From Rhizaria sp. SCN 62-66 (Eukaryota), in contig MEDY01000055.1 in NCBI GenBank assembly GCA_001724265.1, forward strand, positions 62,001-126,000: 64,000 nucleotides of DNA, given 5' to 3'. This document shows, piece after piece, positions 2,001 to 27,400 of the stretch; position 1 is the first letter of the stretch, and every line of letters begins with the position of its first letter. Made by a program: the position numbers and the translations under genes. The notes below the pieces were generated by a model. The model was not told where the DNA came from, did not search any database, and was given only the letters and a program-made list of their open reading frames with translations.

Positions 2001-2645
2001 GATGCACGGTGCGTGCACCGTGGATATGCCGAACCTAACTAACACATTCGTTATTTATATTTAAATATGTTAATTAGACGCAACTATAGTATACATAATC
2101 ATTGTTATCCCCACTTTAGCTCATATTTAACATCAGAAGATGCATTTTTTCAAGAAGTGCGCAGTGGCGGGCTGCAATCCAGACTTCAGATAGGAGAGGT
2201 TGCTGACCGCAAAGTGACCGTGGGCATCACTGCTTGAAGCGCCATCTTTACAACAGATTTAATATGTGTTGTTGTCGTCTTCTAGATACTATTTTTGAAG
2301 ATTACATAGAACAGTATTAAATTCATTTGGATGTGTTATACCATTACTTCTGTCGTTCAGCGGCACTGACAGGACCTGTTCAAAGTTGCCGATTGCCTCG
2401 TTTGTGCGGGATCATCACGTGGGCACTCGGAAGCCCCTTTCTTTAAACGCTCACACCTGCTATTCTTTTCTATACGGTATAGGACTTAACACCGAGATAT
2501 ATCTCGACCAAGTCCGTTAAATACCTGACTGGTAACACTAAATACCTTTATAGGTCTCTCCTAGCCAGGTTTTTTTACACCCCTACCTCCGTTCTCGCCC
2601 GACCGGGCCCTTCGGCCAAGTCCGCGCCGTTCCCCCGCGCGTCCG

Positions 2646-3290
2646 ATGTCGACGCCCTACGGCCCCGCGCACCTGCGCGCGCCGAGTGCACAGCCGGGCG
2701 ACCCGACATCTTCCTCCAACCAGCCTGACTCGCAGCCCTCCGGCCCCGCGCCGGTCCCATCGGTCCGCGCCTCGCTTTCCGGCGCCGCCGCCAGCCCCGG
2801 TGCACAGCCCCCGCTGCAGCGCGACCTCAGCGCGTCGCCCAACCCCACAGGTCCGCCGCCGGGCCAGAGCACGAGCCGCGCGCGCGGCCGCCGCGTCTCT
2901 TCGGGTGGCGCCGCGTTCCTGGGCTTCGCCGCCAGCGTGGGAGGCAACCCCGCCCCCGCGGCGGGCCCCGGCAGCGGCGGCCTCACCCACAGAGGCGGCG
3001 GCTCGGGCGAGTACCACATCGACCCCTCGGGCGCCTACCTGGGCCTGCCCGCGCTTGCGTATCCCGGCGCGGCGCCCTCGGTCTCCGCCGCGGGCCCCGC
3101 GGGGAGCTACTCGCCGCGCTCGCGGTCGCGGCCAGCGTCGCGCCAGTCGGGCTTTTTGCAGCATCACCAGCAGCAGATGCAGCAGATGCAGCAGATGCAG
3201 CAGATGCAGCAGCCATACCGCCACCCGACGCCGCCGAACACGTATAACTACGCTATGCACGCCGCCGCTGCCGCGAACAACACCAACGCT

Positions 3291-3321
<31 letters not shown>

Positions 3322-4938
3322 TGCATCAGCAGCAACAACAGCAGGCGCCTGCGTTTGCGCACATGATGTCCCTCGGCCTGGCCCCCGGCATGCCTCCGCA
3401 GCAGCAGACACTTGTCTCGCCCACGGGCGCCTTCTACTCGCTGCCCGTGGCCGGCCCCGCGCAGGGCATGGGCGCCCCGCGGCCGCGGTCGCCGTTCCGT
3501 GCCGCAGTCGCCGCCGTCGCCACCAGCAGCATGGGCGCTCACAACAACAATGCCGGCGGCACCGCGGCGGCCGGGACTGCGCAGTACACTGGCGACGCCG
3601 TAGTCTCGAACAGCACCAGCAACAGCAACACGGGCACGCCCCTGATCCACACGAGCACGTCTGCTGGCGCGACGCCGCTGACGATGGGACCCGCACCCGC
3701 GCCCGCCGTCACGATGACCGCCAGCACCACGACTTCGAACACACCGGCCCAGACCCCGGGCCCGCTCAGCGCGGCGATGGCGCTGCCCAACAACGACTCC
3801 AACAGCACCAACGCGAGCTCGCAGCTCAACACCGGCACCAGCGCCGGCGCAGGCTCTGCGGCGATGCACTTGAGTCCGTTCGCGAACCTGCACTGGGGAT
3901 CGCTGCAGCCGCACCCGCACCCGCCGTCGCGGACGGCCACGCCGCGCATCGCTAACGCCGGTGACGCCAGCAGTAGCTCCGGCACCGCGGCCAGCAGCAG
4001 CGGCGGAGGCGGTGGCGGCGGAGGCATGATGATGCAGTCGCCGCCGCCGCCCGCGCTGCTGCACATGATGTCCTACGGCGGCAACCCCCCGGCCGGGTAC
4101 GGCATGATGACGCCCCACGCGCACGGCCACGCGATGCAGATGGGCCACCCCATGGGCGGCGCACACGGTCACCAGATGATCCAGTCCCCCAGCATGTTCA
4201 CGCCCACGCACGCGGGCGCATTCGCGATGACGCACCTGTCGCCCGCGCCGAGCCACCACTACACGGCGTTCCAGCAGCACATGCACCAGCAGCAGATCCA
4301 GCCGGGCTCCGCCAGCGCGCCGCAGCAGACGCACGGGCTCGGCGCCGGCGCCGCGGACCACGCCGACGCGACGCCCGTGCTCAACACGCCGGGCTACACG
4401 CAGAACAACACGCCCGCCGTCGCGAACGGCAACGACGCAGTGCTGGTGGGCATGCCGCTGTCGTTCGCGCACAGCCACGCGCATAGCCAGGCCCACAGCC
4501 AGTCGCACTCCCAGTCGCAGTATCCTCAGCAGGGGCAGCAGTCGCACACGCTGCCTCACGGGAGCAGCGGCACGAGCGAGCTCCCCGGCTCGCACTCTGG
4601 CGACGCTCACAGCCAGCACCACGGCGGCGACGGCGACGCGCTGCCCGGCGAGCATGACACCGCTCGCACTGGCACCACCATGTCCGGCGTCACCGTCACG
4701 TCCTCGGTCTACACGCGCGTGCGCGCGCCCAGCGCCTTTGGTGGCAGCGGCGGCGCGGGCGGCGGCGGCAATGGCGGCAACGGCGGCGGCAGCGGCGGCG
4801 GCGGCGGTTTCGACTCCGTGTCGTCGCTGCCGGCCGGCGTGTCAATCCCCGCCCTGCAGCTGCCCGTCATGTCACCGACGCCGCCCGCGGGCACGGCGCT
4901 GGCCAAGTCCTTCTCGCAGCCGCCGCTGCAGCAGCAGT

Positions 4939-4981
<43 letters not shown>

Positions 4982-7900
4982 CGGCGGTGAAGGATACGGG
5001 ATGCACACCGGCGCGACGATCGGCGACCTGATGTTGCAGGTGCAGGGCGGCCCGTCGACGCTGGGCTCCCCCGGTCTCGAGTCGCTGCCTCAGCCCACGA
5101 CGGCGGTTTCCGGCTTCAACTCGGAGGGCTTCATGACGGCCACGCCATTCGAGCCGCTTACTGGCGCCGGCGTCTTCGGCAGCCCCTACGCCTTGAACCG
5201 TGGGCTCGGCTACGACAACGCGGCCCCCGGCGGTATGGGCTCGCCCGCCGTCGGCCAGGGCTCCTGGGTCGCTAAGTCCCCGCTCCCGGACCCCGTCGCC
5301 GCACTCACGTTGGGCGTCAAGGGCGCCCCGGCCGCGGCGAACCCATTCTCGCCCGTCGCCGCACCGGCCTCCGCGGGCGCGTCGCCGATGCCAGGGCTGG
5401 ACCGCAAGCAGACGCTCGGGGCCGCGCGCACCGGCGCCGACACCGCGCGCCTCGCGGCGCCCGTTACCACCACCGGCGCGGGCCGTCGCGGCCTGTACGG
5501 CCGCCGCCAGAACAACCTGCGTTGCGCCAAGATCCGACCCTTTCTCATCTGCAGCGAGTCAGCTTCTTGCGCTGCAGTCACGAAGTACGGCGCCAAAGAA
5601 CTCGAGCTCTCGCGTGCCGCCGCCCGCGCGCGCGCCTGTGCCATGTCGACGCTATACTCTGTTTTTATGGCGTTTGTGTTCATGGTTGACACAGTGCTGC
5701 TGGCGCTGGACCACCCGAAGTACAACCGGTTCGACTACTCGCCGCCCGTTTTCGGCATTGTCATGGTGTCCTACCTCTTTATTACGGTGGCGTACATCGC
5801 CGAGTTCGTCGTCAACATGCTCGCCTACAGCGGGCGCGCGGCCATCGGCGGCCGGCCCGGCGAGCGGCAGTCTGAGTTCTACGGCTCCTTCTTGGGCTGG
5901 TTCTGCGTCGCCGCGATCATCACGCTCATCGTCGACTGCGTGTGGCCGCTAAACACGCTGCGTTACCTGCCCGCGATCCGCATCGTGCGCTTCTTCCGCG
6001 TTTTCACGTACCTCTCCGCGGTGCGCTCGATCGCGATGATCTCGCAGGCCGTGTCTAAGTCCGTCGGCAGGCTTATCCCGCTCTTTATCGTGCTGCTGCT
6101 GCTCATTCTCGTCTTCGCGTCTAACTGGACTCTGGCTTACGACACCACGTTCACGCGCCGCTGTCTGCTCACTCCGGAGGGCATCGCGATCGCGAGCGAC
6201 TCCACGGACCCACGCTTCGATGCCATCCAGGTCCAGTTCGCGGTGGAGCAGGCGCAGCGGTGCGTGACGCGCGCGGGCCAGTGGTCCGTGGCGCCCGGCC
6301 GTCTGTGTCCGTAGTACTTCGAGTGCGTCAACGACGCGCCGTTGTCGAGCATCTACGACTCGTTCAGCAACGTACTGCTGTCGTCCGTGGTCGTGTTCCG
6401 CATCGTCGTCATTGAGTCGTGGAACTCCATCATGTACGACATGCAGGACATTTACAACTGGATTCCCGTCGTGCTTTGCATCGTGCTCATTTTCATCGGC
6501 AACTTTTTCCTGCTCAACTTCGTGGCCGCCGTCGTCGTGAACGAGTTCCAGAACCTCGTCGCCGAGCTCTACGTGCAGCAGGCGCGCTCCTCGCAGCGCG
6601 GCTTCGACGAGCTCCGCGAAGTCATCATCCAGATGCTATCCAGCGAAGGACTCTTCCGCGACTTCCCCGTGCTTGGCTCCACTGGCGTGCCCGTCATGCT
6701 GCACCAGTGCGCCACGGGCAAGGCGCTCGCGGGCTTCCTGCTCAAGTCGGAGATCTGCACGTCGCGCAAGGACGCCGTGCGCATGCTGCACCGCATGCTG
6801 TCGCTGCGCATTTTACACGAGGTCTCGGCCGCGGGTGTGGTGCAGCCCAGCGGCAGCGGCGGCATGTATGAGGTCAAGTTCTTCACCGATGCGACGCACT
6901 TTTACTCCTTCGAGGGTTCCGACGAGCCGGACGAGAACATGCCGCCCGCGCTGCAGCAGATCATCCGCTCCATCCTGCTGCCCATCAAGCAGCTCATTGC
7001 GGAGCTCGCTGCCAAGCGCGCCGCCGCCGTCGCTGCGGGCGCTGCGGGCGCGGCTGCCGCGGCCGCTGCGGCCGGCGGGCCCAACGCCGCGCTGATTGCG
7101 GCGCAGGCCGCACAGGCCGCCGCGGCTGCAAAGGCTGCGAATGCCGCCGCCAAGGCCGCCAAGGCCGCTGCTGACGCCGCGACCTCCGCCGTCGCCCCCG
7201 CCGACGCCGAGGCGACCGCGGCCGCCGCTGCCACAGCTGCAACCGCCGCCTCGGCCGCCGCGGCAGAGGCCGAAGCTGCTGTCGCCGGCACTGCTCCTGC
7301 CACTGCGATGACAACCGCGCACCCAACAGCCTCCGCGCCCACCGGCACCGGTGCTGGCCACGGCCACGGGCTCGGGCTCGGCCTCATGTCGCCCGCCGAG
7401 CTCACCGCCGCCGCCAGCGCCGCGGTCTCCTCAACCGGCGGCGCGAAGCCCGAGCTCGGCACCGGCGCGAACGGCGAGAGCACCGCGTACACGGTGCCGG
7501 GGCTGGCGCTGGGCGGGATCCCCGCGAACCTCGGCGTCGGGCTCGGCTCGGAGGGCCTTGTCCCCGCGCAGACCGACCACATGCACTTCGCGGGCGCGAT
7601 GCCCGGCTCGGGCGCTGCGGGTGGCGACGTGTCCAATGGACAGCAGCAGCTGGACCAGCAGCAGCAGCTGCTGCAGCAGGAGCTTGACGGCGGCGCCATG
7701 ACGCAGGCGCAGTTCGACGAGCAGTACCAACACTTCTACCAGCAGCATCTGCAGAACAACCTCCGCGCCGCGGGCTTCGATCCCGCGACCGCGGCCGCCG
7801 CCGCCGCCGCGGGCCCCGGCGGCGTCCCCGGCGTTGCCGGGGCGGACGGCGACGCTTCGAACTCGGCGGCTATGATGGCCATGACGCCGTTCGGCGCGTT

Positions 7901-10900
7901 CAGCAGCCCGCCCGCGCTGCAGGCCGCCGCGTCGGTCGGGCTCGGCAGTGTCCAGCGCCATCGCCACAGCCTCTCGCACGGCGGCTACCCGGGGCCCGCG
8001 TTCCACCATCCCGATCTCACCACGGCCTTCAACGCAGGCGCCGGCGCGGGCCAGCCGGGCGGGTACTACACCCCCGGCCACGGCAGCGGATCCTTCACGA
8101 CCCCGGTCAATGCGCTGGGGCAGCCGCTGTTCCTGACCGCCGCAGTGCCTGCGCAGCAGCCGCCGCCGTCGGCGCGCAGCCACCACGTCCCGGCCGCGCA
8201 CACCGGCGCGGAACAGTTCGGCGACGACGGCGACACGTTCCAGGGCCCCGGGGCTGGCCTCGGGGCCGCCACCCCGCGCGCGCACGGCGCAGCCACCCCG
8301 CGCGCGCACGGCGCAGCCACTCCGCGCCTAAGCTTTGTCACTGGCACCGGCTCCACGCTAGTGTCGGCGACGCCGCGCTACGGCCCCGGCGGCGTGCCGC
8401 AGACCCCGCGCGCGGGCATCATGACACCGCGCACGGGGGGCGGGACGCTGCCGCCGCAGACGCCGCGCGCTGGGGGCGGGGCGCTGCCGCCGCAGACGCC
8501 GCGCGCGGGGACTATGACGCCCCGCGCCGGCGCGATGACGCCGCGCGCGGGCGGAATGACTCCGCGCGCGTCCGGGATGCTGACGCGCGGCGAGACCTTT
8601 ACCACGCGCATCCTGCACCCTGCGCCGCTGTCGCTGGCGCAGTCCGCGCAGTCGCAGGCGCAGGCGCAGCAGCAGCCTTTGCAGGGCAGCACTGTGGAGG
8701 ACGAGCGCGCGCGCTTCTTCGCCGCACCACAGCCGAGTCCCCGCGCGTCGCAGCGCAGCCACGCCCACGACGATGGGCTGGATCCCGCTGCCGGCACGAG
8801 CGCTGACGCCACAGAGCCGATTCCTACGTTTCACCCCATGGGCTCACGCACTGTCGACGTCACGCGCACGCCGCGCGGCGCCATGCTGCATCAACAGCAG
8901 CAGCAGCAGCAGCAGCAGTTCGGTTTGGTGCCTATTACATTTAACGTTCCCGTCACGACCTCCGGCTCGGCGCCCATCGACGGCGCTACCGACCCGTCTC
9001 TGACCGCCGCGGTCGCCGTGGCCGCGGGCGCCACGGCCTCGGCCTCTGGCTCGGGCATGCCGTCTGCGCGCCGCCGCTCTAACAGCACGGCCCCGACGCC
9101 CGGCACCGCCCGCCGCCGCCTCTCCGGGCTGTCCGCCGACCCCGCCGCGCTCGCCGCCACCAACAACAACAGCACCGGCAGCGCCGGCGGCGGGAACCCC
9201 AGCGGAGGGTTCGTGCCGCCGCCCCTGGTGCACGGCGCGTCCGCACGCGGCGGGCTCGGCAGCGCGGGCGCCAGCGTGCGCAACCTCAACGGGCTGGTCG
9301 CCGGCCCCGCTGGCCCCGGGTTCGTGCCGCCGCCGCTGCTTGCGCAGGGCAGCCGGCTGGGCAGCATGACGCCGGGCCTACGCACTCCGGGCTACGGCCA
9401 GCCGCAGGTACCTCAGTCGCCGTCGCTGGGCGCGGGCGGATACATGCTGCCGCTGCACTCGGCCGCCGTGGCCGCCGCGGGCGCGTCGTTCGTGGCCGTG
9501 AGGGGCCCCAACGGCGTCGTGTTCGTGCCTAGCTACGGCCCACCGCAGGGCTATGAGCTCGCGGCGCAGATGAGCGCGGCGCAGATGGGCGCGGCGCGCG
9601 CGCATAGCACGACGCCGGGCGGCCTGTCGCGCAGCCTCGCGCAGGGCGGCAGCGGGCCTAACGGCACGCCGGGCGTGCCGGGCACGGGCCGCCGGTCCAT
9701 CGCGCTCTCTGGCGGGCCCACTGGCGGGGCGCCGGGCAACGCGGGCGCCGTGTTTGGGAGCAAGGCGCCTTCGCCCCACAGCGCACTGAGGCGCATGAAC
9801 AGCTTAGGCAACATGTACCACCAGAACTTGAACGATCCTATGGTGATGCAGCAGCAGCAGCAGCAGCAGCAGCAGTATCAGCAGTATCAGCAGCAACAGC
9901 AGTCGGCGATGCAGGGTGGTGACCGCAACCGTTTCTTTGCTCCGGCAGCAGATGCCCTCGACAATAGTATCTCGAGCAGCAATGGCAACGGACCGAATAA
10001 CAGCAACACAGGGAACCTTAGTCTTAACACTGGCGGCTCTGCCCATGTTGGTGTCACTAACAACAACAACCACAACAACCCAAGCAGCAACACCGACAAC
10101 GACTCTGTCTCGCACCACGGTTCTGAGCACCACAGCATCGCCCCCAGCAACGCCACGCTCGGCGGCACGAACACGCACGGCCCCGCAATCGACCGCACGG
10201 GCTCACTGCGCGTGCTCTCGCTCGCGCGCGGCTCCGTATCGACGCCGCGGCACAACTTTGCCCCCGCGCCGCACATGCCCAGTCCCGCGCTCGGTACGCC
10301 CCGCAATTTGGCTGCCGCGTCCGCCGCCGCTGCACCAGCCGCCCCGGCGGTGACTGCGAACAACGCGAGCAACGACACCGGTGCGGCGCGCAATCGGTCG
10401 CCGTCGAGCACGCTGTTCACGATCGCCAACTCCAACACCGCTTCGAACACCAACGCCAATGCGGGCGCGTCTCCGGTCAGCGGCTCGGGGGCTAACGCGC
10501 CCGAGCGCGGCTCGCTGCACAGCAGCCCCAACGCTATGCTGCGGCGTGTCAGCAACGCCTCGCCCACGCCGCCCTCGACGACGATCGCGGGCGCGCTGTC
10601 ACTCAACACGGCCGCGCCGCCTCTGGCCGCCTCGGGCGGGGCGACGCCCGCGACCGATAACTCGACCGCGACACCTCAGTCTCAGCAGCAGCAACAACAA
10701 CAGCAACAACAACAACAGCAGCAGCAGCAGCAACAGCAACAGCAGCTGAGTCTGTCGACCTCCGTCGAAGCGTCCGCGCCTGCGCCGACGCCGCAGTACT
10801 CGCCCGACGTCGCCGCGACGGACGAGGACGACGCCGTGCGGTACAACTTCACGCCCGGCGACGGCGACGGCGATGGACGCGGTGGCGACTCGTTCCAGGA

Positions 10901-13900
10901 CTCAGATGACAGCAGCACCTTCAGCGCGAGCGCCAGCTACACGTCCTCGCATTCGTCTTCGTCCTTCACTGCGATGAACGCCAACATGTCTCCCGCGGCT
11001 GCTGTCGCCGCCGCCGCGCTCGCCGCGCAACAGCTGTCAGGCGGCGCTGGCCCCGCGGCTGACAGTGTGCGCGCGCCGTCCCCCACCTCGCGCTCGCCCT
11101 CGGCCAACTCGGGCCCTGTGGTGCGGCTGCGCCCGCGCCCGCGCTCGCACAAGAGCTCGCGCCAGTCTGGCGCCTCGGCGGGCGGCAGCGCGGCGTCGCG
11201 CTCGCACTCGCACGCGGTGGCGCTCATGAGCATGTCGCCCGTGCCCGAGCAGCCCGAGTCGTCGGAGGACACGGCGCGCCGCCGCACCTCGCACCGGCCC
11301 AGTCGCCGCAGCGGGGCTTTCTCCACGAGCATGATGTTACCTGACGGCTCCGTGCTGGCGCCCGCGTCCTCGGCCCTCGCTGGTTCGAACAACGGCAGCA
11401 GTCATGACGCTGCGGGCGCGGGCGCCAACGCGCGCAGCACTTTCCCGCGCTCTGCGTTCGCGCCCGCCTCGCCGCAGCGCATGGTGGCGTCGCTGTCACC
11501 GTCGATGCAGCAGCAGCAGCGCTCGCTGCAGGATCATCAGCAGATGCAACAGCAGCAGCTGCTGCTGCAGCAGCAGTATCAGCAGCCGTACGCTCGCACT
11601 CCCATCGTGCCCTCGTCCGCTACTTCGTCAAGCTCCGCTGCATCTTCATCGTTCACAGTCACACAACAGCCGCAACAGCAGCCACAGGCCGACCAAGTGC
11701 CTGTGATCCCGCTGCCGGCCCGCATGGCGTCTCCGTCCCCGTACAACCCCGCCATGCCGCACGCCGGCGGCCCCATGTCGCCGCCCATGGCAGGCATCGC
11801 GCTGCCGCTGCCACCCTCGCGCATGCGCTTCGCATCTCCGGCGCCCGGCGCGCAGCCCTCGTCCACGGCCTCCGTGGCCGCGAGCGCGTCGTCGGCCTCA
11901 TCGGTCGCGGCCGGCGCCCCAGCTGTTGCGCCTACCGGCGCCGGCGGGGCGCCGATGTGGGGCTCCCCGCTCGCGGGCCCGACGGTCGGCGTGCGCACGC
12001 TCAGCGGCTCCCACAGCGGGCTCACCCCGCTCGCGCCGGCGCTTTTCTCCCCCGCGGGCCCCGGCGAGCGCGGCACACCCACGCTCTCCGCGGCCGGCGG
12101 TAGCTTCGTCGCCGGGTCGCCGCAGATGTCGGGCTCGTCCGTCTCGCGCATGACCCGCGGCGACAGCGGCAGCCTCAGCGTGGCCTCGATGACCTCCCCG
12201 CCCTCAGCGCCCGCCTCGGCGTCGGCCGCCACGCTCGCCGTCGGTAACATCGCCACCGTGGGCGCGGGCGTGCCGCAGCGCCTCGGCCTCCCGCACACCG
12301 TGGGGCCGTCGCTCGCGGGCGCGTCCCCGTTCACCAGCCCCGGCCCCGGCTCGGTCGCCGGCACGCTCTCATCCTCGGGCGGTACGGGGGTCGCGCACAG
12401 CCACGCGGGCTTCGCACTGCACCACGCCAGCGGCTCCAGCGGCGCGGCCGGCACGGCCACGCACTCGGGCGCCGTGCCGCACTCGGCGGGCTTCGCACCC
12501 GCGTCCGTGTCGATGGGCTCGCCGCCCGCGATGTTGAGTGTGCGCACCGACATGGGCGGCGCCATGTCCCCGCTGCCCATGCACAGCCAGGGCCACAACG
12601 CGGGCGCACTTGCCGGCGCCGGGAAGCCTAACGGACTCGTGTTCGGGCGTGGCAGCACCGGTGGCAATATGCTTTCGCACGCGCACTCTCAGGGTGACGT
12701 GTTCGCAGCCCCCGGTGCCCATTCTTCGTCCAGCCTGTCCGGCAACGGCACCAGCATTGCCGCCGGCACGCCCGCCACTGGCACGCTCCCCGCCGGCCGC
12801 GTTGGCGCCGGCGCGGCGGACAACGCGCGCGGCCGGCCCCGCAGCATCACGCGCGCGTCCCCCGGCCCCGCGGGCTCCGAAAACGGCGGCTCCCCGCTTG
12901 CGCCGGAGCTCCGCGTGCTCCCCGTGTACGCGGGCGAGTATGGCGGCCACGTCTTCCTCGGTATCGCGGCCGGCGCGCACCCGGCGCCCAAGTTGGCGTC
13001 CACCGCGGGCAACAGCGCCGCGAGGCGCGGGCACAACAGCACCGGCGACGGCGCCGCGGCCCCGCCCGTGGACGCCGCGGCCGACAACAGCCAGCGGCGC
13101 GCCGCCGCGGCCGCCGCAGCCGCACTGGTGAGCACGAGCGACGTCACCGCGCGCAGCCGCTCTAGCGCCACGGCCAACGGTGCCGCCGGCGGTGTTGGCG
13201 GCTTGCCGGCGGGCGCAGGCCCGGACTCGCCCAGCTCGACCTTCTCTGGCGGGTCCAAGCCGTCGGTGAGCGCGACCTCGGTGTCTGCGACCACGCTGTC
13301 GTCGTCCACCGGTACAATGTCGACCACAACCACCACCAACACAAGCTCTGCGACCGGTGTGGCCGCCGGGCGCGTGGCTGGCCCCGGCGGCGCGCAGATG
13401 TCCACCCACGCCAACGCTGCCAACGCTGCCAGCAGCACCGCGGCTGCGAGCGGCAGCGCGGGCGTCGGCGCACACCGACTCGTCTCCGCGTCGCCGTTCC
13501 GTCCGTCGCTGTCCCCCGTGCACACGACTGCGCCGCCGACCTCGCTGCAGTCCGCCAACGCCGGCCCCAGCTCCAGCGGCAGCGTGTCCGTCACCGGCCC
13601 TGGCGCGCAGGGCTCTCCGCTGGGCTTCGGCGCACACAACACATCGTCGTCGCGGTCTTCCTCGTCCTCGCCCGTGCCCAGCCCCACGCTGGCGATGCCG
13701 CCCGCCGCGGGCAACACCGCGCTCCCGCCCTCGGGCCTGCCCCCGCGCGGTTCTATCTCTGGCGCGCCACCGCTGTCTCTCGCTAGCAACAGCCAGGCCC
13801 CGCCCGCGCGCGGCAGCTTCTCTGGCGGCGCGCACCCGACCGCACTCAGCCCGGCGCCGCTCGTCGTATCAGTGATGCCTCCTCCGCCCGCGCAGTCTCA

Positions 13901-16900
13901 GTCGCAGTCTACAACATCGGCACAGGCGCAGGCGGCGCAGACTCAGCAGCCGCAGACGCCGGGCAGCGGCGCGCTGGCGTGGCCATCGCACCCCCCCGCG
14001 TCCCCTGCAGGCGCCCCGCGTGTGGTGCTAAATGATCTGGGCAAGCCGCCCATCTCGCCCGCGGTGCGCCCGCGCACATCCGTCAATGCGGCCGCCACTG
14101 GCGACACCGACGACACCGCCGGCGGCTCGCTAATCGCGCCGGTGTCGCCCGCGCTCGTCAGCTCCTCGATGCTCGGTGCGTCTTCTCCGGTTGCCACCGC
14201 GAGCGGCGGCGGATTCCCGACCGTGCAGACGCGCCCGGCGTCGTTCTCGGCCCCCGCGCCACCGCAGCCTCACTTCGGCAGCACCGGGCTCGCGCAGACG
14301 CCCGCCCGCGCTGGCGCCGGCGGGGCCGGCGGAACTTTCGGGCCCCCTGCGTCAAGCATCGGCGAGGACGACGGCGGCAGAGGCGTCGGCGTCGGTGTTG
14401 CCGCTCCGCGCGCTTATGAAGGCGACTCTCCTGTCGTTTTCAATGCCTCACAGCAGCTGCAGTCCGGTGCCATCTCACGCTCGTCCTCCGCGCAGTCCAA
14501 CGTGCGCTCGCTGGCCTCATCCTCGCCCGTCATCTCGAGCCGCACCAGCGTCAGCCGCGGCAGCAGCGTCAGTCGTCTGCTGTCGCCGAGCGCGCGCTAC
14601 TCGATCAACGTCAACGCGTCTGCGCAGCCCATGTCGCTGCCGCCGGGCGCTGCGGCGTTCATGGGCACCTCGACGCTCTCCGGTGCGACGACACCGGTGC
14701 AGGGACAGGGCCCGGCGGCGCACTTCAACCTCTCGCCCGCCGCAGCTGCCGCAGCCGCCGCTGCTGCTGATACGACGGCTGCTCTTACGCAGCAGAACAA
14801 CGGAAATGGCTTCAACATGCAGCGCGGGCCGCTGGCGCCCCCCGAGGCCCCGCCGTCGCCCGACCTCGAGCATGACCTTGAGCCTCACTTCCTCCCCTCT
14901 GACTGCGACGACGACGAGGGTGGAGACGAGGAGCTTGAGCGGATGCGCGCGATTGTGAACCCGCTGCGCCGCGGCTACTGCGCCAGTCGCGACAGCACCG
15001 GCCGGCGCCGCGGCAGCTACTCTGGCCCCGGCCCGCTACCGCCGCCGCCGCCGCCGCCTGTGCCGCTACCTCCTACTGGTGGCTTCACCAGCGGACCCAA
15101 CAGCACAACTGCGGCCACGGCCGCTGCAGCCGCTGCCGCGCATGCCGCAGCCGCCGCGCTCGCAGCCGCCGCGAGCGGCGCCGCGCCGGGCAACGAGTCG
15201 CCGCCGCCGCCCAACACAGCGCACACAGTGGCCAGCGATGCGACCGTGGCGACGGCGCTGACGGGCCTGACGGGCTTCTCAGGCTTCTCAGGCGGCGGGT
15301 CTGCCATCTCCGGCCCCGGCTTCGCGCCGGGCGCGGCTGGCGGCGGCGCGCAGTACGGCATGGGCGCGCCCTACACCACCACGCACGGCGGCGGCGCGGC
15401 GCCCGGCATGCCGTACTCGCCCTTTGCGCAGCGCCAGGCGAGCCCCAGCGGGTTCTTCCACAAGGGCAACGCGGCGAGCGCGACGCCCACGGCCGCCGTG
15501 GGGCTGCCGCCGCTGCCAGTGATCCTTACGCCGCAGCGCGCGGGGCTGCCGGCGTCGCACGCGCAGCAGCAGCTCACGCTCGCGCAGCAGCACCAGCAGC
15601 AGATGCAGGGCGTGAGCAGCTCGCTGAACAACACCGCTGTGGCGACGTCCAACACCACCACCACAAACACGAGCACGGGGTCCCCGGGGCTCGGCGACAG
15701 CAACAACACGACCTCCAGCTCCGGCGCCGTGACGCTCGCCGCGCAGCCCACGATGCACGCCGTGCACAACACCAGCGGCGCGCACAACGTCAGCCAGACG
15801 CACTCGCACCAGGAGATGTCATTCGACCGCGACGCGCGCGGCGGCGGCGGCGGCACCGTGGCCGTCGACGGCGGCTTCCGCGCCGCGTCGATGAGCGAGG
15901 ACGGCACGACGAGCGTCGGCATGCGTGCGCTCGAGGCCGCGCTGCTCAAGATCGACGCAGACAAGGCCTCCGCGATGGAGTTCGTGTTTGGCGAAGGCAC
16001 ACTGTCGCACGGCGTTTCGAGCGAAGTCGCCGAGGTGCTGCAAGACAACCGCGGCATGCAGCCCGGCCACGGCCTCCCCGTGCTCCCGCTGTACTACCCC
16101 GTCATGGTCGGCGAGGAGCCCGGGCTGCTGCTGGTCTACGCCGACGGCAGCTACGTGATCAAGTCCGTGCCGGGTTACGTGCACTCGGGCTTGACCAACA
16201 TTAAGGACCCGGCGCAGGAGGTCTCCAAGCAGCGCCTCGCCGCGCACCAGCAGAAGCAGACGATGGCGGACGATATGAGTTCCGGCCCGCTCTCCGGCGC
16301 GGGGTCCGGTGGTGCCCGCGACGGCGCCAACACCGGCCACTCTCGGCCTGGCGGTGACGGCCACACTGCGGGCGTCGCCGGCAAGCCGCCGCAGATGCTC
16401 CCGAGTGGCCCGCAGTTCACTCCGAGCGACGGCTTCGACTCGTTCCTGTCCGCGCGCTCTCTGCTCTCCGAGACTGAGGGCCTTGTGGCGCCGCAGTTCC
16501 AGGCCTACACTGACACGCTCGCCGACTACGCGACTCTCGTGCTCGGCCGCGAGAAGGGCGCGGGGCCCGCGCCGCCACAGCATCTGGTCGCGCACCGCCC
16601 CGCTTCGACCACGTCCTCGTCCTCGTCCTCGGCGACGGCGATGCGCCTGTCCTCCGGGCTCTCCCTCGGCGGCCCCGGCGCAAGCACGGCGGAGCGCATC
16701 GCGCTGGTCCAGGGCTCGTCGGGCGCACTCAGCATGGCGTCGGCGCCGAACGCCTGCCCGAGCCCGCCACTCCCTGTTGGCAGCGGCGCGCTGCCACACA
16801 TCTCCGTCGCTGGCGCCGTTAGCGGCGGGAACCTGCCTCCGCTAAGCAGTCACAACAAGCGGTGGAGTCACCACAGCAGCGACAACGGCAGCGCTGCGCA

Positions 16901-18370
16901 CACGTTTGCGAGCAGCTCGCTGCAGTACTCGACGCATGCGGTGCAGACTATGCCTGGCATGGGCTCCGAGTCTGGCGTTTCGGTCGATCACGAACACGAC
17001 GGACACAACACCAGCGGCAACGCTAACAGCAGCACGCACATGGGCGAGCAGCGCAACCTGCAGGCTGCTCGCGGTGACGCGCCGCCGCTCATGGTCACTT
17101 TGTCGACCAACAGCACGTCCGTCGCCACGCCCGCAGGCCAGCCCGGACCCACGGCCCCGTATTCCACCGATGCCGCCTCGGGCGCTGCTCCGACGGCAGG
17201 ATTTCCCAACCCTCGCCTCCAGGCCGCCGCGACGCGCAAGTCGCTGAACTCGACCATGACGGGCGCTTTCCCGTTCGTCAACACGAGTGCGGGTTATAAC
17301 GCTCCCGCAACTGGCCCCAGCTCCCCGATCAACGCGAACGAGGCGCTCCCACCCGCGGGCCGCGCGTCGTCGTCGTCCTCGAGCTCCGGCGTCAAAACAG
17401 GCACCGTCTCCGGCAGTGCAGGCGGCCGCGTTGGTGCGCGTGCGAGTGCGGGCGCCAAGACGCTTGTGGACGAGGACGGCAACCACTCGATCAACATTGA
17501 GATGGATAAGCAGCCGTCCGTGGTGACAAGCGAGCTCAACCACCCGTCGCTCGCGCACTCGCAGTCACTGTTCAACTACCACCCCGAAGCCATGGTGGCC
17601 AGCAACGTCGGCGCCACCGTCAGCAAGGGATCCCCCACTGGCATCGTGTATCACCGCGGCCAGCCCTCGTCGCGCACTGGCGCGCGCTCTTTCCCCGCCG
17701 GTGCCCCCGCGCCTCAATACGGCGGCGTGTCGCCCACGTCGCTCGCCGCGGCCTCAGGTGCGTCTGCGTTCAGCGCGGCCAGTGGCGGCGTGCAGCCGAC
17801 TGTGCAGCGCCTCCCTTCGCGCGCGCCCTCGAACACGGCCTCCGTTGCGGACTCTTCCACTGGCTCCGGCGGCACTGGCGCCGAGGTCGTCGTCAATGCG
17901 CGCATCGCGAACCTCGTGCACGCCGGCGCGGGGCCGCGCGGCAAGGTCGGGTTGCAGGCGTCGACGCCGGACCTGCTTTCGCTGCTGAGCTCTGTGGTCA
18001 ACCCCGCGGTCAAGATCGTCGACTCGACGGCCGCGGCGGAGTTGTGGCGCAAGCAGGTCACCTCGGTGCTCTCTTCGCCCGCCGCGACGCTCTCGGTGGC
18101 GAGCAGCAGCGGCGAGTCGCGCAGCACGCTCGCGTTCAACACCCCGTCGGTCGGGCCTATGCCGTCGTCGCACGGCGTCAACCCACAGCCGCAAGCCGGA
18201 CTATTGTCAAGCGTGCCCGCGACGCCGCCGGTGGCCCTGGCCGCCGCGCCCCTCTCGAGCGAAACCAGTGGCGACGTGACTCTGGGCTCGTCCGACCCCA
18301 CTGGTTCGAATAGTTCGCCTGCTGTTGCTCATGTTGAACCCACGCAGAGTGCGCAGGAGCCGCTACAGCA

Positions 18371-18407
<37 letters not shown>

Positions 18408-21400
18408 AAACAACAGCAACAACAGCAACAGCAACATCAGCAACAACAGCAGCCAGAGCAGGTCCATTTTGAGTCACCTCACTCTGAGCAGGATAAGCCC
18501 CACCCGTCTCATCCTCCTCTGCAGCAGCAGGGGACGTTGATTCCGTTGGCTTTACAGGAGAATGCAGCTCCTCCTCTCATCACCATCACTGGTCCTTCGC
18601 TCGCTCCCGGCGTCGCGGTGACTCACGTGCTGAACCACGCTCAGCCCGAGGCCGCTAGCGCTGTCGCCGGCGTCGCTTCGCAGCCCACAACCGCGATGTC
18701 TCCTGTGTTGGGCCTCGCCGCTGTGGCCGCATCGCCGCCGGTCTCCGGCCGCCCCGACGCCGAGCCCGCGACGGTGGACGGCGTGCGCGGCGCCATCGCG
18801 GCGCTGCGCGTCGGCATCCCGCAGCGGGACACGCCCATGCTCAGCTCGGCTAGCGGCACGACCACTACCAACACCAGCCATGGCCCCGGCTCTGGCCCTG
18901 GGACCAACAGTAATACGAACACGGGCTCTGGCGCTGGAATCAGCACTACCACCACTGGAAATAGCTCCCTCGTGAGCAATGGCACTGCGGCCTTCGCGGG
19001 CGCGCCGCTCGCACTGGCTCTCGCGCGCTCCGGCGGCCAGGGCACGACCGACGCCAGCGAGCCCGACGCCACCAGCCCCGTCAGCGGCAACGACTTCGGC
19101 GGATCGCCCCTTGCAAACTCGGGCTCCGGCTCCGGTGAGGGCGACAACACGGCGAACCGCAACGCAACTGCTGCGGCTGCGGCCAATGCGGCGCTGCTGG
19201 TGAAGCGTGGCAGCGCGTCGCCGTCGTCCTTCATCAACCCAGGCACCGGCGCTGCGCTTGCGCTGAGCAGCAGCGGCAGCGGCGGCGTTAGCGCCGTCCG
19301 CTCCCCTATCTCCGGGCTGCTGGTGCGCACAGGCAGCAACACGTCCGGCACGTCGTCGCTCGCGCATACATTCTCCGCCGGCCCGCCCCCGCTCTCGCGC
19401 GAGGACTCCGGCTCGATCGTGTTCGGTGCCGGCTTCCGCAACCCGGGCGACGCGTACTCACCGATGTCGACCATCATGTCTGAGGCCAACTACGCCACCG
19501 ACACGGGCTCCATGTACGGCGGCGTCTCCCGCACTGTCGCGCCTAGCATCATCGGCATGGCCAGTGGCGGCGTAGGTGGCGCTAGCGCGTTTGCCAACGT
19601 CATGGAGGAAGGTGAAGAGGACGACGATGATTCCCAGAGCAAGTCGAACAAGTCGTCCCTCGTCTCCGCCGCGGCCGCCACCGACAGTAGTGACGGCAGC
19701 GCCGTCGGCGCGGTGGTGGGTGCGAACAACGCGCGCCACGGCACTGCCGACGGTCAGGTCGGCGCCGGCGCACTGATGAGCGTGATGGAGGAGGACGAAG
19801 TCGCCAGCTCTGCGGCCAACACACACGCATCCGCTGCGGGCCCGGGCACAGGCGCAACGCCAGTTTTCGCCACGGCGTCCGACAACACCGCTGGCCGCGG
19901 TAGAGTCACCGCCTCCTCCGTCGCCCAAGCCGCGGGCAGTGCTACGATGTCGTCGTCGGCCGTGCACACGGCGATCAATCCCCCCTCGCGGCAGTCCCCG
20001 CCGGGTGACCTCGACCGGCTCACGTCTAAGTCTCCCGTAGCAGTGTTCGGCGGCCTCAAAGCGCACAGTCTCGCGCCGGCCAAGCTTGATCTCCCTGTGT
20101 CCCCCGGCCTCACGCCGCGCCTTGTGTCCGACGGCGTTGCCGCTGCCCCGGGCGCTTCCGGCGCCGGTCTGACCACTGCTGCAATCATCGCGAACGCGCA
20201 GCAGAGCTTGGCGAACGCGGACCCCACGCCCGCAGGGACCAGGGGGCGCCGCGTCGCCATCATGGACGTCGACGCCAACGCGGCGGCCGCTGCGGCGGCA
20301 ACTGCGCTGCACGCGGCCGGCAACACAAGCAGTGTCACGGTGCCGAAGCTTGCTCTCGCGCAAGTTCCCGGTGTCGCCGGTGCGGCCGGCGCTGCGGCTG
20401 CTGCGGGCCGTGCGCCGGGTCCCGCTCTTCAGGCCGGTGCCGCGGGCGCCCCGCCGCTGCCGGCCGCGGCCGCGGTGCGCGTGCCGCCTCCAACGTTGAT
20501 GCAGGGCACGCCTCAGTGGCAGAACTACTGCTGCGCATTCCCCGTCGCCTCGCTGTTCCGGCTTGTGTCTAAGGAGCTGTTCGAGTGGGTTAGTGCGTTG
20601 TTTGTGATCATGTACTGCACGTGCATCTCGCTGTACTCTTACAATCAGTCCGAGGACATGACCTTTGTCATCTCGTGCATCATCGACGCGTGCACCGGTG
20701 TGTTCATGCTCGAGATCATGATCCGTCTGCTCGCCCTCCCGCGCCGCTCGCGCACATACCCCGTCGTCATCGCACTGGCCATCCTCAAGATTCACGTCGA
20801 CACCAACACTCTGCCACTGCTGCTGTCAGACTCAACCGCCTCGCGCCGCAAAGGGCGCTCGGCTCTGGCCCAGGCCGGCGGCGAGCAGGGTGACGCCGCT
20901 CGCAAGCGCCGCAACTCGATTGTCGGTATCTCCGGTGTGCACTCGAACGGCTCACAGCTGTATCAGATGAACGTCGGTCGCGATGGCTTCGACGACAGCG
21001 AGGACGAGCGCGACGACCACGACGACGACGCTGATTACAACGAGCATGACCCCGTGCGCAAGTCGCCCAAGTCTCGTACGAGCAAGAACAACGCACACAA
21101 CACGAGCACGAGCGCCAATGCTGCTGGTACTGACGCTCAGGCCGGGGACGCGAATGAGTTCGGCGACAGTGAGCTGCCGCGTCTGCCCGTGGTCCCGCCT
21201 CCTCGCCGCGCCAGGCGCAGTCCCCTGATCGACATCAACATCCGCCACTTTAGCGCGGACGATAATCACATGGGTCTGCACGTGACTTCTTTCTGGGAGT
21301 CGCCGATGTGCATCATCGACCTCATCCACGTGTGTCTCGGCATCGCGCAGATCATCGGTGTGCTGGTCGAGGGCAAGTATCCGTACAACCCCACGTCGCC

Positions 21401-24400
21401 CGAGAACGCGATCACGATCACCAACGGCGCACCGTGGCTCACGATCCTGTCGTTCCTGCGTCTGATCAAGCTGATCCGCCTTGCCGCCGTGCTGTACCTC
21501 ATCCCTGCGCTGCGCCCATTGCTGTCCGTTATCTCGCGTTCGCTGGCCAACGTGCTCCGCATCACGGGACTCATCTTCGTGTTCGTATTCATGTTCGCGC
21601 TGTTCGGCAACCTCTGCTTTGGCGGCGACCACATCCCTGAGGACGTGGTGTTCACGTTCAACTCGTTCTGGTTTTCGCTCGCGTCGACGCTGTTCATTCT
21701 CTTCCCCGATAATTGGGTTGACTGGAGCAGCGAAGTTGCGCAGTACACCACGGTGCTTTTCATTCTCTTCCCGATCGTGTTCTTCCTTCTCGTCTTCCTC
21801 ATTCTGAACCAATTCACGCTCGTGATGGTAATCGAGAACTTCCGTGTCACCTTTACCAACCGCCGCCGCCAGTACCTGATCTGGTCCCCGCGCGACGCGG
21901 CCACAGTCGCTGCCGTCACCGCCGCCAAGGTCACTCCTGCGAACATCCCCGACCCGTCCCGTGGCGTTGTCGCCCCAGCCCCGGCTCTCGCGCTCACCGT
22001 GCCGGGCGCAGTCGGCCCAATCGGCATGCAGCCCGGCCTCCCGCCCTTCGGCTTCTTCCCCGGCGGGCCCGGTGCGCCCGGCGCTGGCGGGCTGGCTCTT
22101 GTGCCCGGCCCCGACGGCTACCCGCAGTACGTCGACGCCGTCACCGGACTGCCCTACGGCGCCGCACCTGGACTCGGTATGCCACTCGGCATGGGCATGG
22201 GCATGGGCATGGGCATGGCGGGCTACCCCGGTGCTTACGGCGCTGGCGCAATGGGTATCCCCATGGGCTACCCGCAGCCGTACCCTGGCGTTGACCCTGC
22301 GGTGATGGCGCCAATGGGCTACCCGCCCGGCGCCGTACCCGTGGACCCCTACACGGGCCAGCCGCAATACACGCCCCCGTTTGGCGCCGTCATGGTGCCC
22401 GGACCCGGCGGCGTGCCCATGATGGTCCCCGGCATGATGCCGCCCCCCGCGCTCGTGCCCAACGCCGCTGCGGCGTACCCCGGCGCCGCCGGTGACGCTG
22501 GCGTTGACGGGTACGACTTCGACGACGAGGAGTACTACGATGACGAGGACATTGACGACTTGGACGGCGAGGACCGCGACTCGGACGACGGATTCGAGCG
22601 CACCCCGATCAATGAAGTTGACGACAACGGTGACCCCGTCCCTGGCGCTGATCAGCAGCACCAGCAACTCGTGCCGCTGAACCCCGACGGCACGCAGCGC
22701 CCGCGGCGCCGTCGCCGCTCCCGCGCGCTGCCGTCTTATAACGCCGACCCTGCTGCGCTCGCAGCCGCCGCAGCCGCTGGGGAAGGCGACATGAACGCCA
22801 TGGCACCCGGCGCCATTGGCACGTGGCCGCAGATGCAGATGCAGATGCAGATGCCGATGTATCAGATGGTCATGGGTCCCAACGGCCCCGTACCCGTGGC
22901 GATGCCGATGGACCCCGCCGCGTACGGCGCGTACCCCGGCCAGTTCCCGCCCGGAGCGGTCCCCGCGATGGGTCCCTATGGCGCGATGATGCCGTGGGGC
23001 GCCGCAGCGTACCCCGGCATGGTCGGCGCGATGGATCCGTACGCCATGGGCATGATGGGCATGAATCCCGCCATGAACATGAACATGGGCTTCGGCATGG
23101 GCTACAACCCCTACAACGCTGGCTACGACAACTACGAAGACGCGTTTGACCACGACCAAGAGGAGGACCACGCCCACACCGAGCTCTCCGGCCTTGATCC
23201 TGGGCACCACGCCGCATATGCGCAGCAGTACGGCCGCGGCAGCGCCGGACACCCGGGGGCCGGCGCGGACACGTTCCGCTCCGAGATGTCCTCGCTGTAC
23301 CACCCGGGCGGCTTCTTCGGCATGGGCCGCGGCGGGCGCTACAACGCGCTCGAGTCGGTCCGCGGCCGCCCTAGCGACAACATGCTCACCGTCGCCAGCC
23401 CCGACAACGCGTACGCCGGCGCGAGCGGCGCGCAGGGCGGCTACGGCCACACATGGGCCGCCTTCGAGAGCGGCGACGTGACGCCTGAGTTCAGCGCAGC
23501 GTCCCCCAGCCAACCGCAGCCGCTGTCGCGCTCCCCGCTAGCGCCGCCCGTGCCGCCGCCCGACGCGGTGCTGAGCACTACGACCACGCCGCTGAATCAG
23601 CGCGGCAACAACTCGAGTTCCTCTGGGAGCAGCATGGCGCGGTCGGCAACCGGGCATCTCATCGCTGTGCCCGGTGGCGCGACCCTGCCGGCGCCCGGGA
23701 GCGGCGGCAACAACAGTAGCGGCGGCCCTTCGTGGCGCACGGTCGACAGCTCTCTGATTGCGACACCGCAGACAGTGGACACGGTTCATCCACCGATGCG
23801 CACCTACTACCAGGGCATTTCCCCGCTCGGTTCCGGTGATCGAGCGAGCATTTCGCTTGGTCCCAACACGATGGGCGGTGCTGAACAAGCGCAGAGCATT
23901 GAGGACACACTCGGTGGACGGCCGAACTCGACGCTTGACCCGACGAAGATGTTGCAGTCGCTGCGTTCTGAGCCTCCGGTCGAGGCACGCCCGATGCCGC
24001 AGATTCTTTCGGTCTGGTCGCGTGACAATTCGGTGCGCACATTCACGCCCACTAATGCAGCACTTCCGGGCTCGCACCAGAAGACCTACGACCCAACTCA
24101 CTCGCGCCGCAATTCCGCTCACTCCGCTCTTTCACATGCGCATGATGAGCACGAGCAGGTGCAACACAATGGTGACGACGAAAATGACTACGAGCGCCTC
24201 AAGAGCATGATGCCGCCTCTGCCGAGCATGGGCGCCGCGCCCGCACCTACGGTCACGATGAACTCGTCTGCCATGGCCGCCGCCAGCTCTGGCGTCGGCT
24301 TTAACAGCGCTGGTCGCCCCGTCCGCACCGCCAGTAGCGACGGCGGCGACAATGGTGCCCATGTAACGCAAGCGCATGTGGCTGCCTCTACGGTCAGTGA

Positions 24401-27400
24401 CTCGCTGTACGCGTCGCACGAGCCGCTGCCGTATAACACCGCGACGACGACGGCCGGGAGCCGCGGCGGCGCGCCGTCGAGCGAGTCCAGTCGCGCGCTG
24501 CCGTTCCTGCCGCCGCCGACGGTCGCGAGCAATACGCCTCTCATCGGCGCCGCCTCCACCACGAACTCCGTAGTATCCTCCGTCGCGCACACGCCCTTTA
24601 CTTCCCCGCACTCGAACGCGAACTCGCAGACGAACCCGCCGAAGCACCACTCTCCCTTCGCGCTGCAGCAGTCGCGGCAGAAAGCGGCGGGTGAAAACTC
24701 GGATCCTGCGGCGATGGCCGCCGCGGCGAGCATGGGCGCCCGCGCGTCTGCGCACGCCACTCCTGCGCACGGTTCCACGGGCCTCCGCCGCTCGCACAGC
24801 CACAGCTCCAGCCACCACAGCAGCCACGGCGGCCGCCGCAGTGCGCGCTCGGCCGTGCCCACGCCACGCGGCCACCGCTCGAGCCGTGCTGGCGTCGTCG
24901 GCGAGGGCGAGAGCAAGGGCGAGGGCGAGGGCGACGATGACGGTGACGGTTCGGCCTCGGTGGCATCGGTCGTATCGCATTACTCGCACATCAGCGACGT
25001 GGCCGAGGCCGTGCACGGCGGCGCGCGCTGGGACCGACACGACTGGGACTCGCCAGTATGCTGCGGCGACGGGTTTAACCGCAGTCGCTGCTTTTTGCGC
25101 ACGCGCCAGCGCATCCACCACCTCGTCATTAGCGACTGGTTCGGCTTCAGCAACGCAATCATTGTGCTTGCTGACTTTATCCTGTGTGCCGTCGAGGGCC
25201 CCTCGCACCGTCCACCCGCGATTGCCGACCTGTTCATGCGCAGTTCATACGAGAACAAGCACGGCTGGGGCGCCGGCAGCTACTTCTTCAGCTCCATGGA
25301 GTTCGCACTCACCGCGCTCTTCTGCTTCAAGACAATCATCTTCTTTGTTCACTACGGCAACCGGCGATTTGTGCGGTCCGCATGGTGCATGCTCGACGTC
25401 ATCATCACCGTGATCACCATTGCTGCCATGATTCCCTTCTCACCAGAGATCAACTTGGGGCTGTCTCTCGCGCGACCAGTCCGTCTCGCGACGCTGCTTG
25501 TCATTAACGCGCGCATGCGCGTCATCGTGAACACGCTGATCCGCTCGCTGCCGGCCATCGCGCCGCTGGCGCTGATCTTCTTCCTGCTCACGGTCGCGCT
25601 GGGCGTCTTCGGCGTTCACCTGTGGTCTGGCCAGCTTTACAAGTGCAACGACAGCACCGTGGGGACGCAGGCCGAGTGCGTGGGGATGTACTGGGACCCG
25701 CGGTTCTCGATCCCGCCAGAGTACCTAACTCTGCCCGGCGGGACGCCGCCTGCGACGGGCACGCGCGGCCGCCTGATGCCGCGCCGGTGGACGTCGCATC
25801 CGATGTCATTCAACAACATTGTCACCTCTGTTGTCAGCTTGCTCAAGCTTATCAACTTCGACGAGTGGGCGGCGCTGCTGCCGGCGATGATGCGCGTCAA
25901 TGGACACACGCTTCAGCCGCAGGATGAAGAAACTGAGGAGCCGCACGCGCTGCTTATGCTCTACATTGTTTTCTTCACCGTGTACTTCCTATTCTCGAAC
26001 GCTTTTGCGATCCAACTCGGCATTGCAGTCGTGTATATGAACTTTGAGCGTGTGAAAGCAGAGAATGACGGTACTAACAGGCTATCTGAGCCTCAACTCA
26101 ACTGGGTGAACACACGCCGCTCTTTGCTTGGTGTGCGCCCGCTGTCCAAATACCACATTCCGTCCTACGACGAGCGCTTCCCACCTTGGGTGCACGCTCT
26201 GCGTGTGCGTGCATACGAGGCCATCTCGACCACAGCGTTCCGCTACATTATCGCCGTCAACATTTTCCTCGCCGCCGTGGCCTCCGCGCTTGTGCTTGGT
26301 GCGGAACAGGGAGTCGAAACGGCACGCCGCGTGATCATGATGCTTGTGCTCTCGGTTTGGGTCATCGAGGCTGTAATCAAGCTCTTCGGTCTCGGCTGGA
26401 AGCAGTACTGGGGCGCAAACTGGAACCGCGTTGCGTTTTTCTTTGCTATTCTCAGTATGACGATGTTGATGCTCTCGATTCCCAGTCAGATTGATGTCGA
26501 TGGTTACACGCTCGTGGTGACGTCGCTGACGATGCTGCGTATGCTCGAGTTCTCCGCGTCGCTCATGCAGCTCGTGTACCAGCTTTACGTCTCGCTTGCC
26601 TCCATCGGTGCCGTCACGGTCGTGACGCTTGTCACGCTCGCGATCTTCGCAATGATCTTCGTCATTGTGTTCGGCTTTATCCCGACTAACGACCCCGACT
26701 TGTTCCTCACAAACACTTACGGCCGCAACGCCAACTTCGCCTCGTTCCTTGTCTCGTTCGTCGTCATGATGCGCATTGCGACTGCTGACCTGTGGGTCGA
26801 TTTGATGTACGGCACGGCGCGCGCTGTGCACTGCAGCAAGCCTGGCTCGATGGAGCTGCACACGGCGTGGATGTGGGAGACCATCGCCAACAACAACACA
26901 CCGTTGTCGCCGAACCCGTGCTCTGAGAGTGGATTTGGCATGTATTTCGCGTACATTTTCTTCCCCGTCACACTCGCCATCATGTCTTTCCTTGTCATTC
27001 CACTGTTCACGGCCATCGTGCTCCAGTCCGTGGCCGAACTCAACACCGTCACCCAGTCCGTCGTTTCACGCTCGCACTTCGACGAGTTCGTCGAGATTTG
27101 GGCTATGTTCGACTCTATGGGCGACGAGTATATCCCTCTGCACCGTCTCCCGACATTGCTCCGCGCCATCTCGCCCGGTCTGTCTTGTGGCACTGGTCTG
27201 CAGATTGCGCGCAATTACTTCAAAGACCTCAACCAAACCACCAAGTTCGCTGCCAAGCGTAAGGACGCCGCCGCCGGCGCGCGCACCGAGAAGCAGCAGC
27301 ACGCCAACACGGAACTCATCCGCGTGCTCGAGCAGCTCGACGACGAAGACGGCGGAGCGGCGGCCACTGGCAGCGCGGCTGGCGGGCGCACTCCCGCCGC

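Follow-up and report, generated by a model that had tools for sequence, protein, structure and literature searches.

The 64,000-nt window analyzed here, positions 62,001 to 126,000 of contig MEDY01000055.1 (Rhizaria sp. SCN 62-66), is very GC-rich and carries six genes. One of these, a predicted four-repeat cation channel gene on the forward strand (2646..40190), consists of 12,514 codons plus a TAA, with no intron called, and contains an in-frame TAG. The frame that opens with the first ATG, at 2646, and closes with the TAA at 40188-40190 (+) spans 12,515 codons, the terminal TAA included, and its only internal stop is the TAG at 6312-6314 (+), codon 1223. This TAG lies inside repeat I in the context CGT CTG TGT CCG TAG TAC TTC GAG TGC, with T at +4; the terminator of the gene has G at +4. 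Two stop-to-stop open reading frames (ORFs) in the same frame flank it, 2565..6314 (1249 aa) and 6315..40190 (11,291 aa). The ORF listing and codon count confirm the initial annotation, made from the sequence alone, which had described a single TAG in the repeat I turret of an otherwise intact frame of ~12,500 codons.

Spurious long ORFs reach ~860 codons in this window. Read in any of its five other frames, 6315..40190 contains between 75 and 389 stops per ~11,291 codons (0.0066-0.0345 per codon), so the 11,291-codon open frame is not due to chance. The G+C content at third codon positions (GC3) is 0.84 over the channel ORF and stays within 0.77-0.90 in each 1000-codon block, before as well as after the TAG. 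Signs of pseudogene decay were not found in the channel gene, as the 11,291 downstream codons contain no second stop and keep the GC3 coding signature; a very young, one-hit pseudogene may nevertheless be compatible with the single lesion.

The two ORFs together are predicted to form one four-repeat channel of the voltage-gated Cav (calcium) and Nav (sodium) type. In the translation of 5400-8000, the Pfam Ion_trans match (E 3.4e-23) covers residues 85-387 and the TAG is residue 305, so the match crosses the stop. Compared with solved structures, repeat I matched 43 distinct sequences at E <= 0.001, all of them Cav/Nav channels or a bacterial relative, and the best solved relatives of the channel are Cav3.2, Cav2.3, and Cav1.2. 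Transmembrane segments S1-S5 of repeat I (5646..6119, +), with Arg in every third position of S4, precede the TAG and were placed by Pfam Ion_trans, hydrophobic segments, and reading of the sequence. The pore helix, the selectivity-filter Glu (VIESW), and S6 (6357..6599, +) follow the TAG and were placed by structure alignment and by P0007 (residues 307-387, independent E value 7e-12). Between them, the turret motif C-P-*-Y-F-E-C (6306..6326, +) aligned to CPAGYEC of Cav2.3 (7xlq_A) and CPQFFEC of the homologue P0003. With S1-S5 upstream and the P-loop and S6 downstream, the gene can give a channel only if translation continues past the TAG. This placement of segments, and the conclusion that a channel can arise only if the two ORFs yield one polypeptide, had been proposed at the outset; the Ion_trans match across the stop, the structure alignments, and hydropathy agree with both.

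Further downstream, Pfam Ion_trans recognizes four stretches in 20001-32000 (E 5.1e-60), and hydrophobic segments were found for all four repeats. Repeat II (20613..21830, +; limits approximate) showed no alignment to PDB sequences or P0007, and its assignment comes from Pfam stretches and hydropathy, with an S4-like LRLIKLIRL. Repeat III (25137..26045, +) was located with Cav1.2 (8eog_K, E 1.1e-36 across repeats III-IV, ~25.2-27.2 kb), with P0007, onto which the repeats were mapped using overlapping 800-residue chunks, and with hydropathy. Cav1.2 (8eog_K), P0007, and hydropathy also placed repeat IV together with a weak GPHH-like stretch (26223..27197, +; GPHH E 0.0083, under the cut-off). 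A weak DEP-like stretch (6702..6911, +) follows repeat I (Pfam DEP E 5.4e-4, 20.3 bits, under the 32.7-bit cut-off), and P0003 aligns there as well. Basic S4 residues, read by eye, are clear in repeats I (IRIVRFFRVF) and II (LRLIKLIRL) and sparse in III and IV. The filter residues read E, D, D, D, with repeat I taken from the alignment to Cav and II-IV identified by eye two residues ahead of the conserved Trp. The full protein would comprise ~12,514 residues; ~4,700 of them form a low-complexity linker between repeats I and II and ~4,400 a C-tail, and the N-tail, also of low complexity, accounts for 1000. Tracts of polyQ, polyA, and polyG occur in the protein.

A full HMMER scan returned 658 proteins at E <= 0.001, of which 2 reached E <= 1e-30. 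The sole close homologue covering the site, P0003 (ENA, 576 aa, 29% identity, E 2.3e-42), aligns without gaps across the stop, GRSCPQFFECAVD versus GRLCP-stop-YFECVND, and places Gln at the stop position (SCPQFFEC versus LCP*YFEC). The stop is thus not conserved in P0003, which has a sense codon there, and protein and metagenome searches returned no closer relative. The initial annotation had suggested checking the orthologous codon in relatives, and this one covering homologue supplies the answer Gln. Among 20 stored homologues that match the turret motif, x is Ala in eight, Ser, Asp, Trp, and Gln in two each, and Thr, Glu, Val, and Phe in one each. By this comparison the x position is evidently variable and residue-tolerant. 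The earlier description of a C-P-x-G-Y-x-C turret with a variable x holds; its remark that x is often Glu does not, with Glu in 1 of 20 compared with Ala in 8 and Gln in 2.

One-transition precursors of TAG number 503 CAG versus 61 TGG codons in the channel gene. Because P0003 has Gln in a gap-free alignment, CAG to TAG is the likely and most economical origin of the stop, with one distant homologue as support. A search with repeats III-IV gave 12 matches, all at 20-24% identity, and no close named relative; identity to fungal Cch1 is 20-23% over these repeats. Two repeat I homologues from another organism, P0014 and P0153 (on Logan contigs of 8.9 and 21 kb), end in ...QVQVSG, upstream of the turret. 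Their ends probably mark an intron boundary reached by a prokaryotic gene caller.

Several other accounts of the TAG were rejected. Gap-free homology to P0003 and the GC-rich coding signature rule out a location within an intron, as the real introns here are AT-rich with GT..AG ends. The contention that this region does not resemble the AT-rich introns is accordingly upheld, with GC3 of 0.77-0.90 on both sides of the stop and the homologue alignment rejecting splicing-out. A frameshift near the TAG is unneeded, since both halves of the conserved turret motif are read in one frame. Reinitiation after termination would not rescue the pore, as the next in-frame ATG lies 40 codons past the TAG, beyond the filter Glu.

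The stop recurs in other assemblies. P0002 (ENA, 180 aa, from a 4026-nt contig) is 99% identical over query residues 66-244 and ends in ...GRLCP, with the stop next in line at query residue 245. P0152 (JGI, 223 aa, from a 1362-nt contig), a member of the P0002 cluster, likewise ends in ...GRLCP. Both may share source samples with the window. More independent of the window is run X4 (2025), from another study: one of its contigs, 619 nt long and spanning 6264-6882, keeps the TAG and has one difference, T>C at 6343 (Leu to Ser), so that on its sequence it represents a second haplotype with the stop. Over ~1,700 covered bases, X4 and the window differ at 1, which places the two TAG-bearing haplotypes very close together. 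No protein with a sense codon across the site was found among 4754 candidates of 163-520 aa, which held only the P0002 cluster, and no longer repeat I protein among 8000 candidates of 574-2000 aa. In metagenome collections, a protein-pattern scan matched 119 stretches with 0 confirmed, and a DNA pattern across the TAG site gave 0 matches. The window stretch itself occurs in bioreactor, wastewater, and activated-sludge metagenomes from 8 studies (2015-2025). In an observation separate from the stop, the first five residues of P0002 (three differing, window ~5766-5782) depart from the window, with the other 175 identical, which suggests that its contig is chimeric or carries a structural variant just upstream. 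The contigs of runs X5 and X6 begin near this departure point, at 5750 and 5756.

Run X5 is a polyA-RNA run that yielded a 562-nt contig exact to 5750-6311, which stops on the base before the TAG without a loose end. The run does not cover 6312 to ~7017, and runs X6 and X7 do not reach the site; these gaps are not evidence of anything. With about ten right-hand contig ends in the 2051 bases of the region, an end at the TAG by chance has a probability of ~1 in 200. The simplest reading is a coverage break, as low-depth contigs break every few hundred bases, and the end could also mark a T/C mixture at 6312.

We next considered the genetic code, using the six genes of the window (19,335 codons). 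TAG occurs once in these codons, compared with ~112 occurrences expected if it were a synonym of CAG (727 CAG), an expectation that rests on the TTG/CTG ratio (90/582), which reflects an identical T/C choice in the first position. With 1 observed against ~112 expected, ordinary sense use of TAG is rejected here. This count bears out the reservation expressed previously about a commonly used reassigned UAG. The genes terminate at 1375-1377, 40188-40190, 42282-42284, 46644-46646, 58614-58616, and 58885-58887 (the last on the minus strand), with five TAA, one TGA, and no TAG; G stands at +4 in five of six, and GC3 ranges from 0.74 to 0.9. The initial annotation was right that none of the six ends in TAG, and its tally of four TAA and two TGA is revised by this recount. 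The absence of TAG from six terminators would have a probability of 0.12-0.26 at a 20-30% TAG share and is not significant in so small a sample. No tRNA genes were found in the 64-kb window. A code of the Amoeboaphelidium type, in which UAR encodes Gln according to Panek et al. (2017, PMC5304391), was rejected, since TAA is the main terminator here.

The surroundings of the TAG were also searched for read-through signals. The context CCG UAG UAC UUC, with T at +4, is not known to be leaky and does not fit types such as UAG-CAR-YYA. Folds around the stop are not unusual compared with shuffled sequences: the 129 nt after the stop gave z -1.56 and were matched or beaten by 14 of 200 shuffles, the 132 nt before it gave z +0.51, and 81 nt centered on it gave z -0.74, with the UAG unpaired between two helices and outside a hairpin loop. 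No Rfam match at E <= 1 was found around the stop. The channel mRNA contains 568 Gln codons, and the TAG is flanked as P-x-Y, not Q-x-Q. The X4 contig, from a library recorded as neither RNA nor DNA, keeps A at 6313. A literature search, which covered papers and not supplementary files, found none joining an in-frame stop codon, a voltage-gated calcium channel, and read-through.

Retroviral gag-pol UAG read-through inserts Gln, and the plant-virus type uses a CAR-YYA context. The window TAG is like both in being one in-frame UAG between two parts of one polyprotein, and unlike both in having no pseudoknot-like downstream stability, CAR-YYA context, or Rfam match. In yeast, Gln, Tyr, and Lys are inserted at UAG, according to Blanchet et al. 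(2014, PMC4150775), and a preprint (Leslie et al. 2026, PMC13192750) reports that premature-stop read-through increases in mRNAs richer in Gln codons and next to a Q-x-Q flank. The present case resembles this near-cognate read-through in that UAG would be readable as Gln, the putative ancestral residue, in a Gln-rich mRNA; it differs from the Q-x-Q case of that preprint in its flank and in being known from sequence alone.

Variant codes and editing offer two further comparisons. Some protists have reassigned UAG alone and retain UAA as a stop; examples given by Panek et al. (2017, PMC5304391) are the rhizarian exLh (UAG as Leu) and Iotanema (UAG as Gln), in which UAG is widely used in coding sequence. 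The window shares with these codes the retention of TAA as terminator, the absence of TAG from six terminators, and Gln at the homologous position, and departs from them in that TAG is found once in 19,335 codons and is not widespread. In filamentous ascomycetes, adenosine-to-inosine (A-to-I) editing restores premature UAG to UGG. As described in PMC11156358 and PMC10776026, fungal editing favors U at -1, so that UAG is a frequent target, and 71 premature-stop pseudogenes of Fusarium graminearum are restored. Like the ascomycete targets described there, the channel gene is otherwise intact with a single premature UAG. Unlike them, it probably had Gln and not Trp as the ancestral residue, its UAG lies outside a hairpin loop, and nothing places its organism among the ascomycetes.

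As a channel, the predicted product is like four-domain Cav/Nav proteins in its four six-transmembrane repeats, the spaced S4 Arg residues of repeats I and II, the acidic filter residues, and the C-P-x-G-Y-x-C turret of repeat I. It is unlike the Cav/Nav homologues found, which have about 1,400-3,700 residues, in its length of ~12,514 residues with a ~4,700-residue I-II linker and a ~4,400-residue C-tail. Named channels show only 20-24% identity to it, and it is set apart from them by the weak DEP-like stretch and the stop inside repeat I.

Neighboring genes are eukaryotic, judging from their sequences. An intronless gene with strong C-ending codon bias (41163-42284, +) encodes a two-RRM protein (Pfam RRM E 2.1e-35) with an acidic Ser-rich N-terminus and a Gly/Arg-rich tail, nucleolin- or Nsr1-like in organization. 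A SUN-domain protein gene has an intron near 43267 with a GTACGT 5' site and a CTAAC branch site. On the minus strand, a tandem CCCH zinc-finger gene starts at 63228 and contains an AT-rich GTATGT...CAG intron at ~62500-62655; an apparent in-frame TGA at 62587-62589, between ORFs 62587..63273 and 58885..62586, arises because the intron of this gene lies there. The introns of the window are short and AT-rich, with GT..AG ends and GTAYGT 5' sites. At E <= 0.01, Pfam gave no match for the 48096-58616 (+) ORF (3506 residues) or for the C-terminal end of the 1-1377 (+) gene.

The initial annotation had listed five options for the TAG without choosing among them. Read-through, editing, and a nonsense allele are not decisively separated by our analysis; the last is the most likely, given the lack of a read-through signal and a homologue with Gln, not Trp or a stop. 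We therefore favor, at about even weight, a young nonsense allele, null or leaky, in a giant channel gene. A CAG (Gln) codon at the variable turret position of repeat I would have become TAG by a C-to-T change, and the allele would have become established in the population, being present in two haplotypes from samples about a decade apart. The mutation would be young enough for the 11,291 codons after it to be still free of a second lesion. Translation by the standard code would mainly give a truncated protein with the N-tail, voltage sensor I, and S5, and full-length channel would arise only via background read-through by a near-cognate Gln-tRNA, with Gln insertion restoring the ancestral residue at a residue-tolerant position. 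How old the mutation is, that it abolishes or reduces function, and that read-through is low are our inferences. The intact downstream frame does not exclude a young null allele, because at such low divergence few neutral changes are expected in 34 kb. Several observations nevertheless count against a young nonsense allele. The downstream 11,291 codons show no decay: their GC3 is that of coding sequence, the S4 arginines are kept, and all four filter positions are acidic. The allele persists in two haplotypes over ~2015-2025, as a harmful null allele might not, and its stop falls at a residue-tolerant position, as expected if the read-through product matters. Furthermore, the lack of TAG among six terminators, the use of TAA in five of six despite high GC3, and the G at +4 in five of six would fit a poorly terminating UAG. 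Finally, the channel gene may be expressed, judging from the exact polyA-RNA contig at 5750-6311, for which DNA carry-over is possible.

The strongest rival, which is possible but rather unlikely, is selected read-through, in which a near-cognate Gln-tRNA would usefully decode UAG and selection would keep both the truncated product and enough full-length channel. The functional appearance of the downstream codons argues for it, as do a stop at an x position that tolerates nine residue kinds among 20 homologues, an allele common to two haplotypes, and the T at +4 of the internal TAG versus G at five of six true terminators. Gln is, moreover, the putative ancestral residue and among the insertions reported in yeast (PMC4150775), and the 568 Gln codons would raise read-through by the relation given in the preprint (PMC13192750). 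Opposed to this are the missing leaky context, with P-stop-Y in place of the Q-x-Q of that same preprint, folding no better than shuffles, no Rfam element, and a stop not conserved in the sole homologue covering the site. A variant or ambiguous nuclear code, with UAG as a rare Gln sense codon or in early reassignment, is improbable: TAG ends none of the six genes, the homologue has Gln, and PMC5304391 provides protist precedents, yet the single TAG against ~112 expected, the non-significance of the terminator count, and the absence of tRNA genes from the window weigh the other way. Restorative A-to-I editing of UAG to UIG, read as Trp as in stage-specific ascomycete editing, is less probable still. 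The U at -1 matches the fungal preference described in PMC11156358 and PMC10776026, the introns are fungus-like in being short and AT-rich, and Trp occupies x in 2 of 20 homologues; editing would not, however, restore the Gln of the nearest homologue, the UAG sits between two helices and not in a hairpin loop (fold z -0.74), X4 keeps A at 6313 in a library whose kind is not on record, and fungal Cch1 is no close relative of the channel. An error in sequencing or assembly that hides a sense codon, also among the original options, is scarcely credible. The general prior of single-base errors in metagenome assemblies speaks for it; the stop is repeated in ENA and JGI assemblies and in the X4 contig that differs at 6343, and no sense-codon protein emerged from either candidate set. 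Other readings share the remaining probability.

Taken as a young nonsense allele, the TAG would be a one-hit lesion caught early in a very large gene. The case also carries a caution for annotating metagenomic eukaryotes, as a prokaryotic gene caller split the gene at the TAG in two other assemblies. We consider it a tentative alternative that an uncultured wastewater eukaryote of GC-rich composition needs UAG read-through with Gln to make a channel of ~12,500 residues, either by selected read-through or by generally weak UAG termination. No known four-domain cation channel would come near it in size, and, if read-through or an ambiguous UAG is the truth, the locus would provide a natural stop inside an essential pore domain rather than a C-terminal extension. 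This outcome would point to an unsampled lineage with weak UAG termination, the state that theory places just before stop-to-Gln reassignment. The lineage seems to avoid TAG terminators and could be at an early, ambiguous stage of UAG-to-Gln reassignment. Either way, the gene is unusual, encoding a four-repeat channel that exceeds the known Cav and Nav subunits about fivefold in length.

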